A stretch of DNA of 64,000 bases from assembly GCA_963702895.1 (NCBI GenBank), contig OY969767.1, positions 800,001-864,000 on the forward strand, written 5' to 3'. The notes under the pieces were generated by a model that was not told the origin of the DNA, did not search any database, and saw only the letters and a list, made by a program, of their open reading frames with translations. This DNA comes from an uncultured Elusimicrobia bacterium. GTDB taxonomy: Bacteria; Elusimicrobiota; Elusimicrobia; 2-01-FULL-59-12. Positions 7,954 through 19,381 of the stretch are shown here, in pieces. Made by a program: the position numbers and the translations under genes. Each line of letters begins with the position of its first letter. Position 1 is the stretch's first letter.

Positions 7954-9341
7954 GAGTTCTTGTCAAATGTACTGGAAATAGGGCAACGCCCCTTTCGTTG
8001 AATGTCTCTTAGGCCGCGACCTCCAGCTTCTCTCTTTCCACAAATAGTACTTCAACCAATTCCGGCTTTGCGATCGGCTTCCAGAACTGCGCTAAACGCT
8101 CAATGACCTTGTAGACGAATGCCACGCCTGTTCGGGATTTCTGGAACCGGCGCACGACTCGCGTCCGCAACCGCACTCCCGCGAAGACCGACTCAATCGG
8201 ATTGCTCGTCTTCAAATGGACCCAGTGCTCCTTCGGAAAGTCGAAGTACCTCAGCAACGTGTCATGATCCTTGCGCACACAAGCCGCAGCCTTCGGATAG
8301 CGAATTTCAAGATCCTCAGCCAACAAGGCCAACTGGTTCTCCGCGTCTTCGCGGCGCTCCGCCTGATAGGCCACCCGCAGGCGATTGAGGACTTCATCCT
8401 GCTTAGCCTTCGGCACTTTATCCACGACGTTGCGCATCTTGTGCTTCCAACACCGTTGATCCTTCGCCGAGGGATACACCTCTGCCACCGCCTCCCAGAG
8501 CCCTCCGATCCCGTCGCCGATGACCAACAGCGGAGCAGGCATACCGCGCTCCGCGACCCCTCTCCAGATTTCCTTCCAGGAATCCCGGCTCTCCCGGTAG
8601 CCTTCCATCAGCGCGATCAGTTCCTTCTGGCCTTTCGCGTTGACGCCCACCAGAACCAGAAGCGCTGTGTTCTCTTTTTCCAGCCCCGCTTTTAAATACA
8701 CGCCGTCTGCCCAGACATAGGCGTAACGCGTCTCCGATAGGTCCCGGCGACTGAACGTAGCCAGGTCCGACTGAAACTTCGCCGATAGACGCAGGATCGT
8801 GCTGGCTGATAAGGTGGCTCCATCCCCGATCAGTGCTCGCAACGCCGGCTCAAAGTCCCGACTCGAGAGTCCCTCCAGGTACAGCCGCCGGAATAACTCC
8901 TCGACCCCTTCCGTCCGCCGCTGGTAGGGCCGCAAGATGCTCGACTCAAACTCGCCTCCGTCCACCTGGGGCACCGATAGCTTCAGCCCCGCCCCCAACA
9001 CCGTCACCTTCCGCTCCCGCGTTCCGTTCCGATAGCCTTTCTCCAGATTCTTCGCCCGTTCATAGCGCCGACGCTCTAAATACATCGTCACTTCTTCTTC
9101 CAGGGCCTCCACCAGCATCTTGCGCGCTCCTTCACGGGCCAGATAATCCACCATGCTCTCGCCTTTGTGCTGAGTCCCTTTCTCGTTTACAATGGTTTCC
9201 ATAACGGCGTCTCCTTTTCGTTTATTGTCCGCTCGAACGGACAGGTTTGTGTGTTTCAACGAAAGGGTACGCCGTTTCTATTTCCTAAGGCAAATCCTTC
9301 CTTGCCTTAAAACCTATTTCCAGCACTTTTGATGGTAACTC
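7954..9341 (-). mobile_element. IS256-family insertion sequence, copy 1 (1388 bp)
   Basis: Imperfect TIRs GAGTTCTTGTCAAATGTACTGGAAATAG / GAGTTACCATCAAAAGTGCTGGAAATAG; 9-bp target duplication TTTAGGGGG (7945-7953, 9342-9350). Confidence 0.95.
8009..9202 (-). CDS. IS256 (Mutator-family) DDE transposase
   Basis: YVWADGVY, IGDG, QRCWKHK and TSNPIES motifs; ATG at 9202 with AGGAG RBS (ORF extends to 9259). Confidence 0.95.
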   Translation of the reverse strand: METIVNEKGTQHKGESMVDYLAREGARKMLVEALEEEVTMYLERRRYERAKNLEKGYRNGTRERKVTVLGAGLKLSVPQVDGGEFESSILRPYQRRTEGVEELFRRLYLEGLSSRDFEPALRALIGDGATLSASTILRLSAKFQSDLATFSRRDLSETRYAYVWADGVYLKAGLEKENTALLVLVGVNAKGQKELIALMEGYRESRDSWKEIWRGVAERGMPAPLLVIGDGIGGLWEAVAEVYPSAKDQRCWKHKMRNVVDKVPKAKQDEVLNRLRVAYQAERREDAENQLALLAEDLEIRYPKAAACVRKDHDTLLRYFDFPKEHWVHLKTSNPIESVFAGVRLRTRVVRRFQKSRTGVAFVYKVIERLAQFWKPIAKPELVEVLFVEREKLEVAA

Positions 9342-13293: not shown

Positions 13294-13685
13294 GGACTGG
13301 TGGCGTCCCGTATCCTGTATACGCTAAGGACGGGACAGTCCCGCGGCGTAAGCACGTAGGTGCGCGGGACGGAACTGGCATACGCTTTCTAGCGTATGAT
13401 GTTTAGAGGCGGTTTGGTGGACTGGTGGCGGAATTGGCATACGCGTACGGCTCAGGACCGTATTCCGAAAGGATTGCGGGTTCAACTCCCGCCCAGTCCA
13501 CCAAACCGCCTCAATATTTTAAGCCTACGGCTCAGGACCGTATTCCGAAAGGATTGCGCCCGCCACGACTTCGCGGCGGGCGTCCGCCGAGACTTAGTGG
13601 CGGCCGGGTTCATCCCCACGCAACGCGCAGGGATAGTCCCACCCCGTAAGGGCAGAGGAAGGTGGGACAACTCCCGCCCAGTCCA
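13294..13685 (+). pseudogene. Split, hairpin-interrupted outer tRNA-Leu(CAG) copy surrounding the intact tRNA
   Basis: Pieces 13294-13305, 13372-13385, 13526-13558, 13607-13612 and 13670-13685 concatenate to a near-exact copy of 13419-13500. Confidence 0.8.
13419..13503 (+). tRNA. tRNA-Leu(CAG)
   Basis: GGACTGG/CCAGTCC acceptor, TACGG-CTCAGGA-CCGTA anticodon arm, long variable arm, GGTTCAACTCC, encoded CCA. Confidence 0.95.
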
Positions 13686-13715
13686 CTGGAGCACTTTTAA
13701 AACACTGGACTTCGC

Positions 13716-16914: not shown

Positions 16915-17001
16915 GGAGAGATGCGAGAGCGGTTGAATCGGCTCCCCTGGAAAGGGAGTAGGGGTGAAAGCTCCTCGAGGGTTCGAATCCCTCTCTCTCC
17001 G
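16915..17001 (+). tRNA. tRNA-Ser(GGA)
   Basis: GGAGAGA/TCTCTCC acceptor, CTCCC-CTGGAAA-GGGAG, long variable arm, GTTCGAATC. Confidence 0.95.
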
Positions 17002-17187
17002 CTGAGACCATCGTGCGGGCGCGTGACACACATCCGTAGCGTCCGCCTGACTTGAGGTGGGAGTCGCCGGGTGTGTGGCGCTCCCCGCCACTCCATCTCA
17101 AGACAGCATGCGAGGATCCCTCCGCTGGAGGGGCCTGTTGTAGGTAGTTTGTATAATGAGCACCGATTTCGGTTTTGGAATGTTGCT

Positions 17188-17277
17188 GGGGGTGTAGCTC
17201 AGCTGGGAGAGCCTCGCCAGACTACAGGCGAGCCCGCCGGCTGTCTGGCGGGGGTCGCCGCGGCGACAGGTCGCCGG
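17188..17277 (+). pseudogene. Truncated chimeric tRNA-Ala copy with double-hairpin insert
   Basis: GGGGGTGTAGCTCAGCTGGGAGAGC, then hairpin pair, GTCGCCGCGGCGAC and AGGTCGCCGG; no T-loop or 3' acceptor strand. Confidence 0.75.
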
Positions 17278-17313
17278 CGTAGGGTGTTTCAGGAGCAATT
17301 TTTGGGAGTTGGT

Positions 17314-17602
17314 GGGGGTGTAGCTCAGCATATGAAAGAAGGCGCGTTGCTGGGGGTGTAGCTCAGCTGGGAGAGCGCATCGTTCGCAACGATGAGGTCG
17401 CCGGTTCGATCCCGGTCACCTCCAGCAACGCGCTTCATTTGGGAGAGCCTCGCCAGACTACGGCGAGCCCGCCGGCTGTCTGGCGGGGGTCGCCGCGGCG
17501 ACAGGTCGAGGGTTCGTCCCGCATTCTTAGACTCTTACGATGCGGGACAGTCCCAACCCATAAGGATGGAGGAAGGTGGGACGAGCCCCTTCACCTCCAC
17601 CA
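17314..17602 (+). pseudogene. Split outer tRNA-Ala-like copy surrounding the intact tRNA-Ala
   Basis: Pieces 17314-17329, 17440-17448, 17488-17516 and 17584-17602 give a cloverleaf with G3:U70 and CCA but a collapsed anticodon loop. Confidence 0.75.
17352..17424 (+). tRNA. tRNA-Ala(CGC)
   Basis: GGGGGTG/CACCTCC acceptor with G3:U70, CATCG-TTCGCAA-CGATG, GGTTCGATCC; CCA not encoded. Confidence 0.95.
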
Positions 17603-17629
17603 ACTCCCCGTCTATTTCCAAATTCATCT

Positions 17630-19381
17630 ATGAGCTATCAAGTTCTTGCGCGTAAATATCGGCCTCAAACTTTTGAGGAAATCGTTGGCCAGGCGCACGT
17701 GGCCACGACGCTTGCCAATGCGCTCAAAAACCAGAAGGTCGCCCATGCCTACCTCTTCTCCGGGCCGCGCGGCGTCGGCAAGACCACCACCGCCAGGATC
17801 CTTGCGAAGGCCCTGAACTGCGTCAAAGGCCCAACCCCCGTTCCCTGCAATCAATGCGATTCCTGTCAGCGCATCGCGCAGGGGCAGGAGATCGTGGATG
17901 TGCTTGAAATTGATGCGGCCTCCAACCGCGGCATTGAGGAAATCCGCGAGCTCCGCGAGAACGTCCGGTACGCGCCGGCCCGCAGCCGGTTTAAGGTTTA
18001 CATCGTGGACGAGGCGCATCAGATCACCCATGACGCCTTCAACGCTTTTTTGAAAACGCTGGAGGAGCCGCCGGAGCACGCCATTTTTGTGCTGGCGACC
18101 ACGGAGTACCAGAAAATCCCCGCCACGATCCTCTCGCGCTGCCAGCTTTTTCGGTTCAAACGGGTCTCCGCAGAAGATATTTCCAAACACCTCGAAAAAA
18201 TCCTGGGCCGTGAAAAAATCACGTATGAAAGCGCTGCCCTTTCCCGGCTGGGACGTGCCGCCGGAGGGTCCCTGCGCGACGCGTTAAGCCTCCTGGATCA
18301 GGCGCTCGCGTATGCTTCGGGCGCGCTCTCGGCCAAACAGGTGGAAATGCTCTTGGGTTTTTTGCCGGAGGAATTTTTGGTGGGTTTTGTGTCCGCCCTT
18401 CTTGAGCGCAAGCCAGCGGGGATCCTCGAATGGGTGAAGCAGCTGGTGGAGGAGGGATGGGATATCCCTCAGTTTGTGCGAGACTTCAGGGAATTCTTAC
18501 GGCAGTCTTTGGTCGATCAACTTGGATCGTCCGACGCCCCACGCTCGACGTCAGACGTCGCACGCCGCACGTCGGAGGAGCTCTTGATCGCGGGGCGTTC
18601 CGTTTCTCTTCCGGAAGTTCTCCACATGATCAAAGTGATGGGGCAGTGCGTGGACGAAATGCGTTGGAACGACAACCCGCGCCTCGTCCTGGAACTCTAC
18701 AGCCTGCGACTGACGCAGCCGTTTGTGGACGCCGGTGTGTTGCTCAAGAGAATTGAAGAACTTGAGGAGAAGAGTGGCGTATCGGAGTATCGGAGTACCG
18801 GAGTATCGGAGTCACAGCCCAGTAGCGTAACGGAGTACCAGGGTACCGGCGTCCCGGGGTCACAGCCCAATAACGTAACGGAGTATCGGAGTGCCGGAGT
18901 ATCGGAGTCACGCCAAGGCCGTGACCCCGTGACCCCGTTACGCCGATACCCCGATACTGCTGTTACCCCGACACCCCGACACCCCGACACTCCGTTACAG
19001 GCCTCCGCCTCTGAATTGTGGAAGCGCCTGCTGGCTGAACTCTGGAAGAAGCCGACGGTCGCTTCCCATATGGAACGAGCGGCGCTCAAATCCGCGACGG
19101 ACAAAGTGTGGGTCATCGAGTTTGCGGACGCTTTTGCGCTGTCGACCATGGAGCGAAACAAAGTGTTTTTAACCGAGACGCTCGCGGTCCTGGCGGGACA
19201 GGCTCTTGAGCTGCGTCTTGTCCAAGGGGCTCCGGACCAGAGAGAACGGGATGACGCGACGGTAGTCGTGCCGTCTCCCGCTTCGGAAGGGCGTCCGGTT
19301 GTGGAGCAGAACGCTCATGTCCAAAAGGTTCTGGGTGTTTTTAAGGGGCGCGTTCGGGAGGAGGAGCGGCCTGCATCATGA
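17630..19381 (+). CDS. dnaX: DNA polymerase III subunit gamma/tau
   Basis: MSYQVLARKYRPQTF, GPRGVGKTT, EIDAASN, DEAH, SRCQ. Confidence 0.97.
   Translation: MSYQVLARKYRPQTFEEIVGQAHVATTLANALKNQKVAHAYLFSGPRGVGKTTTARILAKALNCVKGPTPVPCNQCDSCQRIAQGQEIVDVLEIDAASNRGIEEIRELRENVRYAPARSRFKVYIVDEAHQITHDAFNAFLKTLEEPPEHAIFVLATTEYQKIPATILSRCQLFRFKRVSAEDISKHLEKILGREKITYESAALSRLGRAAGGSLRDALSLLDQALAYASGALSAKQVEMLLGFLPEEFLVGFVSALLERKPAGILEWVKQLVEEGWDIPQFVRDFREFLRQSLVDQLGSSDAPRSTSDVARRTSEELLIAGRSVSLPEVLHMIKVMGQCVDEMRWNDNPRLVLELYSLRLTQPFVDAGVLLKRIEELEEKSGVSEYRSTGVSESQPSSVTEYQGTGVPGSQPNNVTEYRSAGVSESRQGRDPVTPLRRYPDTAVTPTPRHPDTPLQASASELWKRLLAELWKKPTVASHMERAALKSATDKVWVIEFADAFALSTMERNKVFLTETLAVLAGQALELRLVQGAPDQRERDDATVVVPSPASEGRPVVEQNAHVQKVLGVFKGRVREEERPAS
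18779..18998. repeat. In-frame octamer-based repeat (three 48-nt units plus inverted octamers) in the dnaX linker
   Basis: GTATCGGA-type 8-mers followed by CCGATACY/CCGACACC 8-mers. Confidence 0.8.

Follow-up and report, generated by a model that had tools for sequence, protein, structure and literature searches.

A tRNA-Ala(CGC) gene nested in the remains of an older copy: a probable scar of a selfish GIY-YIG nuclease and palindrome module in Elusimicrobia

In the window (the whole stretch of DNA that was analyzed, 64,000 nt of an Elusimicrobia genome, here G000), an intact tRNA-Ala(CGC) gene lies inside the interrupted remains of another copy, referred to as the outer shell. The shell is probably what remains of an older tRNA-Ala(CGC) gene, now dead, after the action of a selfish module that resides in tRNA genes and consists of a single-domain GIY-YIG nuclease gene and palindromic units of ~14–23 nt. 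RecR of this genome is 77–86% identical to RecR of Elusimicrobiota genomes and 53% at most to the others listed. The link between nuclease and inserts is a positional association in the genomes compared. In the proposed course of events, the nuclease would be supplied in trans by an intact copy at tRNA-Ala(GGC) and would cut tRNA genes in their loops; each 3' end would gain a palindromic unit, which would snap back and copy the overhang (X), and the two ends would be rejoined through X and its complement. Only chromosomes that kept or captured an intact tRNA copy would survive, which would account for spare genes beside or inside wrecked ones, and later inserts would accumulate in the wrecked copy. 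The nested, arm-swapped locus is real, recurrent and apparently undescribed in print; in the literature consulted (mostly non-subscription papers) no description of nested or arm-swapped tRNA genes with this repeat was found.

Coordinates of the features are given in Table 1. The four outer pieces were joined by script and gave a 73-nt cloverleaf with paired acceptor (7 bp), D and T stems, G3:U70 and CCA; this cloverleaf, G3:U70 and encoded CCA included, had been proposed in the initial annotation, and its coordinates proved exact. Also confirmed were the palindrome at the anticodon-arm position of the outer copy, the intact tRNA-Ala(CGC) without CCA set in the D-loop inside an inverted repeat (ARAGORN, Rfam and a perfect 10-bp repeat), the pairing of the outer flanks, and a chimeric third copy, earlier placed at 17188-17277. 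Two shell inserts, of 39 and 67 nt, are additions to that description; the 39-nt insert has no spacer and no target duplication. The palindrome of the shell has a 2–4 nt loop, compared with the 7-nt anticodon loop of a functional tRNA, and ARAGORN at a lowered threshold assigned the joined shell a 2-nt 'anticodon' and no isotype. A reading of the CGC within the palindrome as an anticodon relic was rejected, the identical 14-mer being found in Ala(GGC), Arg(GCG) and Pro shells. The third copy runs in the order inner-type leader, tRNA nt 1–25, hairpin pair, palindrome, variable loop and 5' T-stem of the inner allele. No other tRNA-Ala in the genome is specific for GCG codons than the inner gene. 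The + strand from tRNA-Ser to dnaX has no frame of at least 100 aa, hence no integrase gene. The interval separating tRNA-Ser(GGA) from the left arm (window 17003-17150) contains more GC-rich hairpins, their loops resembling those of the units, and an IS256 family transposase is found on the minus strand at window 8009-9259, with no connection to the shells seen.

Table 1. Features of the tRNA-Ala(CGC) locus (window 16915-19381; positions are those of the window).
Feature	Position	Strand	Basis or remark
tRNA-Ser(GGA)	16915..17002	+	ARAGORN and synteny; upstream neighbour, used to recognize the orthologous locus in other genomes
TATAAT hexamer, candidate -10 box preceding every copy	17152..17157	+	similar hexamer in relatives
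Putative module left arm ('third copy')	17182..17277	+	sequence parse; truncated after inner-allele 5' T-stem
40-nt hairpin pair in left arm	17213-17252
Palindrome in left arm	17254-17267
Outer leader	17304..17313	+	perfect 10-bp inverted repeat with 17599-17608
Outer shell nt 1–16: 5' acceptor strand (G3), 5' D-stem	17314..17329	+
110-nt D-loop insert: long hairpin with the intact tRNA as loop	17330..17439	+	without target duplication
Inner cassette: 10-bp inverted repeat around tRNA	17342..17433	+	perfect repeat, 17342-17351 / 17424-17433; common to two other genera, one compensatory change
Intact tRNA-Ala(CGC), no encoded CCA	17352..17424	+	ARAGORN, Rfam 64.4 bits
Outer shell nt 17–25: remaining D-loop, 3' D-stem	17440..17448	+
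39-nt pair of inverted ~20-nt palindromic units	17449..17487	+	between nt 25 and 26
14-nt palindrome in place of anticodon arm (nt 27–43)	17489..17502	.	generic repeat-family member
Outer variable loop, 5' T-stem, T-loop to nt 57	17503..17516	+	apparent older allele, equals working allele of relative G006
67-nt T-loop insert (hairpin pair)	17517..17583	+	long hairpin 17517-17547, spacer CAG 17548-17550, long hairpin 17551-17581, duplicated CG 17582-17583
Outer T-loop remainder, 3' T-stem, 3' acceptor strand (U70), discriminator, CCA	17584..17602	+
Outer trailer	17599..17608	+	encoded CCA inside repeat, paired with outer leader
dnaX (DNA polymerase III gamma/tau)	17630..19381	+	NCBIfam; downstream neighbour

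Of 11 genomes of the family, 9 showed the tRNA-Ala(CGC) locus. A full shell is present in three of the nine, two of them with CCA, and the nesting in G006 and G007 is the same as in the window. G010 has an upstream partial copy only, and the other five (G001 and G003, of the same genus as the window, and G004, G005 and G009) have a plain gene with CCA and no shell. This patchy occurrence (3/9, and none in two congeners) supports the interpretation as a scar. The three genera with a shell share 83–85% RpoB identity. Their D-loops are broken after nt 16, 19 and 21, each exact or within 1 nt, and the inner repeat is retained in all three with one compensatory change; a second short helix of different sequence lies below it. 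In G006, where the shell was read over two overlapping contig ends, the acceptor stem and G3:U70 are intact, the T-arm is unbroken and CCA is present, and shell and working gene both carry the T-arm of the window's outer copy. The G007 shell lacks CCA, and its T-arm is the alternative one, identical to that of the working gene in this genome. Because its T-arm equals the working allele of a relative, the outer copy here is taken to be an older tRNA-Ala(CGC) allele, and shells usually follow the resident allele. RpoB and DnaX trees (G001 is without rpoB) did not resolve the branching of the family, nor with it the order of gain and loss of the shell.

Lack of conservation in relatives and an assembly chimera had been named in the initial annotation as findings that would speak against a functional shell. 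Conservation was found to be partial: the nesting is present in two other genera, but the shell is missing from 5 of 9 genomes, and the CCA and 5' piece are not kept throughout. A chimera is unlikely because the same nesting occurs in these two genera and because tRNA-Ser, the outer leader, the outer 5' piece and the inner cassette, the last lying ~90 nt farther away than it does in the window, are also found together on a 6.8-kb contig from a public DNA run unrelated to this genome. That contig spans the outer 5' part and the inner cassette, not the outer 3' part, and hints at one more layer. The stretch itself is contained in none of the public sequencing runs (best share 0.11). Reads of an RNA run compared with the locus fell on tRNA bodies only, a coverage that carries no information on transcription.

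The usual layout of the module at the locus is a left arm (tRNA nt 1 to ~56, arm swapped), a nuclease gene, an intact tRNA in inverted-repeat flanks, and a right arm (nt ~16 to 76) with the same swap of the anticodon arm for a palindrome. At the Ala(CGC)-dnaX locus of G038, L179 and L182, a GIY-YIG frame of 80–90 aa lies just upstream of the intact tRNA; in G038 the left arm (nt 1 to ~56) precedes the nuclease and the right arm (nt ~15 to 73) follows the tRNA, both with the identical 14-mer of the window. The module with its nuclease gene was found at Ala loci of G196, G446, G013, G030, G001 and G006, in the order left arm, nuclease, tRNA in G196, G446, G013, G001 and G006. Right arms carry CCA in L182, L195 and G030 and are without it in G007, G038 and L179. 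Both arms are kept at the window locus and the nuclease gene is absent; in relatives, this gene begins immediately after the point matching the left-arm truncation (17277). As the loci of relatives show the nuclease between the arms, the third copy is read, by this comparison, as the left arm, and the outer 3' piece as the right arm, of a module that lost its nuclease gene.

The tRNA-linked GIY-YIG frames are 79–92 aa long and single-domain, comprising the catalytic domain only, with palindromic units nearby; their best solved-structure matches are UPF0213 proteins and SLX1. In G000, 5 of 9 PF01541 matches lie within ~550 nt of a tRNA gene, and the copies include an intact 79-aa frame beside tRNA-Ala(GGC) (G000:C1 ~1700930-1701170, minus strand), another at Ala(TGC) that is interrupted by a stop, and a further two at Asn. 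The tRNA-Asn locus (G000:C1:1813050-1813800) holds two tandem units of a GIY-YIG gene and a tRNA-Asn 3' fragment with a T-loop pair, in which the GIY-YIG frame enters the tRNA fragment and stops inside the palindrome. In a tree whose metagenome rows were picked by palindrome, the tRNA-linked proteins fell outside the clade flanked by CGTC repeats (99/97 for that clade), and their own branch was weakly supported. The CGTC-flanked clade is presumably Ssn. Two GIY-YIG genes of G000 with CGTC-type palindromes on both sides (G000:C1:543300-543600 and 554200-554550) are probable Ssn/SRM modules.

A single GIY-YIG match, not near a tRNA, was found in each of the genomes poor in the repeat (G004, G009 and G010). 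The correspondence of nuclease and repeat is imperfect, since few tRNA-linked nuclease genes accompany the many repeats of G005 and G007, and in G006 several such genes occur along with few hairpin pairs. The swapped-arm pattern was found in 8 of 393 genomes of the class, over five families, one of the eight resembling a chance match, and in 28 metagenome stretches, several of them duplicates, 22 with a tRNA gene within 500 nt; viral contigs gave no match.

Palindromes of ~20 nt form 84 inverted pairs in G000, compared with 0 in one order-3 Markov control genome, and 41 of the 84 lie within 800 nt of a tRNA gene. The window's 14-mer has 10 copies in G000 and is present in other isotypes and genomes; at five other G000 shells (Ala-TGC, Ala-GGC, Thr-GGT and Arg-GCG twice) the arm is likewise swapped for one unit. 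Among 301 genomes of the phylum, of which only two were further members of the family, 2 contained the T-loop pair pattern. A kissing interaction of the loops within a pair was considered and rejected, as the loops do not covary (by eye). Near-identical 507-aa reverse transcriptase frames occur three times in G000, none of them near the locus. The RNase P RNA gene (G000:C1:1392100-1393000) contains long hairpins of 7–8-nt tandem units, a separate repeat family, and a small bacterial SRP RNA model had no match in the genome.

That recurrence of the nested architecture points to a mechanism, as had been argued from the window's Leu and Ala loci, was borne out genome-wide. Exact self-fragments of at least 10 nt were found within 700 nt of 34 of 47 tRNA genes (a count that includes a few neighbouring tRNAs), compared with 82 of 960 random windows, and tRNA-Glu(TTC) (G000:C1:1666490-1666960) has three nested layers, every one of them enclosed by a separate long inverted repeat. 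At Gln, Phe and Val, tRNA ends are arrayed in tandem. The Leu(CAG) shell (window 13295-13690) carries four inserts, has retained its anticodon loop and has lost CCA, and stem-breaking changes were seen in Pro-GGG, Pro-CGG and one Gly-GCC stub. Intact tRNA genes for every isotype, a true tmRNA, SmpB and two matches to the CCA-adding or poly(A) polymerase family are present in G000; with this full tRNA set and these polymerase family matches, neither the shell nor its CCA is needed for tRNA supply. A tRNA-Met(CAT) 3' stub (G000:C1:1396380-1396480 and L138) is common to G000 and G007; its paired T-stem is unlike either working allele, and the unit stems are conserved with diverged loops. The tRNA-Arg of G000 has anticodon GCG, with no ACG copy.

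Leader and trailer pair perfectly past nt 72 over exactly 10 bp in 16 of the 30 tRNA genes with at least 6 bp (from G000, G007, G004 and other loci, after removal of one duplicate), and a 10-bp stem of this kind is present in the outer shell as well. This length may be a processing feature of the lineage, because an un-nested tRNA-Ala(GGC) in the repeat-poor G009 has a flank nearly identical to that here. Snap-back as the source of the 10-bp flank repeats was not established, as a repeat-poor genome also has such stems (5/33 vs 13/46).

Junctions of the hairpin pairs follow the order X, unit, reverse complement of X, inverted unit, X, where X (0–4 nt) follows the target. Pairs with a 2-nt spacer obeyed this rule in 26 of 31 cases in G000 and in 13 of 13 at G007 tRNA loci (7 CA/TG, 6 CG/CG), and where there is no spacer there is no target duplication. 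The rule also held for spacers of 1 nt (6/6), 3 nt (18/19) and 4 nt (16/17), classes made up largely of copies of amplified repeat mosaics and so not independent. A long class, selected on a CAG or TAG spacer and including the T-loop insert of the window, obeyed in 7 of 7 cases with one extra (bulged) A in the spacer; two inserts of the Leu(CAG) shell belong here (CG with CAG, CA with TAG). Pair partners are combinatorially assorted and rarely clonal. At orthologous sites the unit pairs differ and the spacer accords with the local allele: the tRNA-Glu(CTC) spacer reads CG in G000 but TG in G007, each matching its own T-loop allele, which indicates that the spacer is set by the target. The junction rule suggests, as its simplest account, that cut ends are capped by snap-back; this would also explain why the units are inverted, why partners assort freely and why the outer base pairs are perfect.

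The same selfish origin could also have operated with hairpin pairs as preformed single-stranded dumbbell circles, in which the spacer pairs with X (peel-and-paste, IS200/IS605 or RAYT). Integration of a closed dumbbell as a single strand would yield the same string of X, unit, reverse complement of X, unit and X, the bulged-A spacer resembles a guide, and REP dimers with heterologous partners are described in the available text of PMC3733652. We regard this route as unlikely. A single weak PF01797 match (E 1e-4, 89-aa frame) was the only sign of a Y1 transposase or RAYT in G000, with no intact one, partners are combined freely and are seldom clonal, and the unit pairs differ between orthologous sites while the spacer keeps to the local allele.

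A different reading takes the shell as a selected tRNA-like RNA: after RNase P cuts, the paired halves would form an alanylatable acceptor helix acting as a decoy or mimic. We consider this improbable. It would fit the intact acceptor stem, G3:U70, D-stem and CCA in the window and G006, the CCA-bearing right arms of L182, L195 and G030, the retention of the structure over three genera with a compensatory change, the candidate promoter upstream of all copies, and the recurrence of leader-trailer stems of exactly 10 bp, outer shell included. The locus fold is strong (z = -8.3; none of 100 shuffled sequences folded as well), but the predicted structure lacks the outer D-stem, and in it the bases of the interrupted outer T-loop are paired into an extended helix. 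Judged as a functional tRNA, the shell has acceptor stem, G3:U70 and CCA and is without an intact D-loop/T-loop elbow. Its CCA lies within the 10-bp flank repeat and is missing from the right arms of G007, G038 and L179 and from the window's Leu(CAG) shell; no shell exists in 5 of 9 family genomes, other shells have stem-breaking changes, and a genuine tmRNA is encoded elsewhere in the genome. The earlier suggestion of a tmRNA-like mimic or decoy was thus not upheld, given the generic palindrome, the broken T-loop, the CCA and 5' piece inconsistently kept among relatives, congeners without a shell, and the true tmRNA and SmpB.

A search of the window with Rfam at gathering score, which had been proposed to exclude known ncRNAs, gave three tRNAs only, with no other ncRNA and no intron family. 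Neither ARAGORN nor Rfam detected a tmRNA in the window, and a tag frame and pseudoknots are missing from the shell. A scan of the locus for promoters and terminators found no full promoter site and no terminator. The outer shell is probably co-transcribed with the inner tRNA and then discarded during processing. If it were charged, it would be a new tRNA mimic, for which the evidence is thin.

It is very improbable that the inserts are small introns excised from RNA, with the shell maturing into a tRNA-like molecule. They do sit in loops at exact positions, and the spacer can pair with either copy of X in the manner of a splice guide. However, no intron family was matched, an intact gene exists for every isotype, so that the shell is not the sole source of tRNA-Ala(CGC), and removal of the inserts still leaves no anticodon loop. 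Inserts in reading frames are mostly frame-keeping. Because hairpin pairs avoid long reading frames (7 of 101, vs 61% of the genome) and 5 of these 7 keep the frame, removal at the RNA level is unlikely. One 45-nt hairpin pair (G000:C1:1102486) is read in frame within a 2631-codon reading frame. Group I intron ends were also tried as a reading of the inserts and rejected, as there was no model match and the pieces are plain hairpin pairs. An assembly artefact, or enzyme-free slippage or template switching at GC-rich palindromes, might produce the tandem arrays at Gln, Phe and Val but is hardly credible given the same nesting in two other genera and an unrelated run, base-exact arm swaps, a spacer rule that holds across genomes, and repeated linkage to one nuclease group.

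Against the preferred reading, the dead older copy left by a nuclease and palindrome module, several points must be set. Neutral decay alone, without recent transfer or ongoing conversion, would not account for a shell that persists in three genera, with a compensatory change in the inner repeat and a second short helix below it. The D-loop break points differ (nt 16, 19, 21) yet each is near-exact, and snap-back does not account for the bulged A in the spacers of the long class. There is no nuclease gene at the window locus, and nuclease and repeat content are mismatched in G005, G006 and G007. As a wider and more tentative proposal, which we hold to be possible rather than probable, this would be selfish DNA without a transposase: a tiny GIY-YIG nuclease would open tRNA genes, and snap-back units would build inserts in place from the target; the same machinery would swap anticodon arms to the base and nest spare tRNA genes, and the host would become dependent on the cassette tRNA.

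The locus bears on the means by which short palindromic repeats can spread in the absence of a transposase. tRNA genes supply a known pre-insertion sequence, so the junctions are visible to the base, and the rule that the spacer is the reverse complement of the duplicated target is directly testable in vitro or on a plasmid. For annotation, the presence of identity elements in a tRNA-like shell, in Elusimicrobiota or genomes like them, is not enough to call it a new RNA.

Among known systems, the tRNA-like domain of tmRNA has a G3:U70 acceptor stem, CCA and no anticodon loop. The shell differs in having no tag frame or pseudoknots, in its broken T-loop and in not being conserved. Integrative elements that enter tRNA genes leave an intact gene and displaced fragments, with the T-loop and anticodon loop as entry sites; here, in contrast, there is no integrase, both 5' and 3' parts are displaced, the fragments are modified, and the copies follow the resident allele.

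REP, REPIN and BIME sequences, in the available text of Di Nocera et al. (2013; PMC3733652), are likewise short palindromes that occur as singles and inverted (hetero)dimers, mostly intergenic and sometimes translated. The units here differ from REP/RAYT in that no GTAG or CGTC tag was present at their foot, no intact RAYT was found, the tRNA bias is strong (41/84), and the spacer depends on the target; the terms 'target site' and 'duplication' do not occur in the main text of PMC3733652.

SegB of phages T4/T6 is described as cutting tRNA genes at a T-loop motif and leaving 2-nt 3' ends (PMC2330249, in the text available), and as driving tRNA-gene amplification (PMC13096335, in the text available). 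With its GIY-YIG gene within tRNA clusters, it is the closest system in target and end geometry. It is a phage protein with a 666-bp frame that, so far as these texts describe it, works through homologous recombination, whereas the frames here are ~80 aa, catalytic domain only and chromosomal, and the products of the module carry palindromic inserts and swapped arms.

The Ssn family with its NTS/SRM repeats is described in the available text of Chenal et al. (2025; PMC11893778) as small single-domain GIY-YIG genes flanked by a hairpin repeat that has many copies elsewhere, an IS-like layout. SsnA is stated there to bind its own hairpin repeat as single-stranded DNA and to cut beside it, and the repeats are linked to small GIY-YIG nucleases, with no insertion chemistry described in that text. 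A single-domain GIY-YIG protein of <150 aa with a flanking hairpin repeat was found at related loci, the gene being absent at the window locus. The tRNA-linked proteins differ in falling outside the CGTC-flanked clade and in having another repeat, and neither arm swap nor nested gene appears in the available text of PMC11893778, whose main text does not contain the word tRNA. The locus thus falls outside the definitions of tRNA, tmRNA, RAYT-REP, SegB and integrase islands; by analogy, it would work like a module of the Ssn/SRM type aimed at tRNA genes, the known system closest to it in layout.
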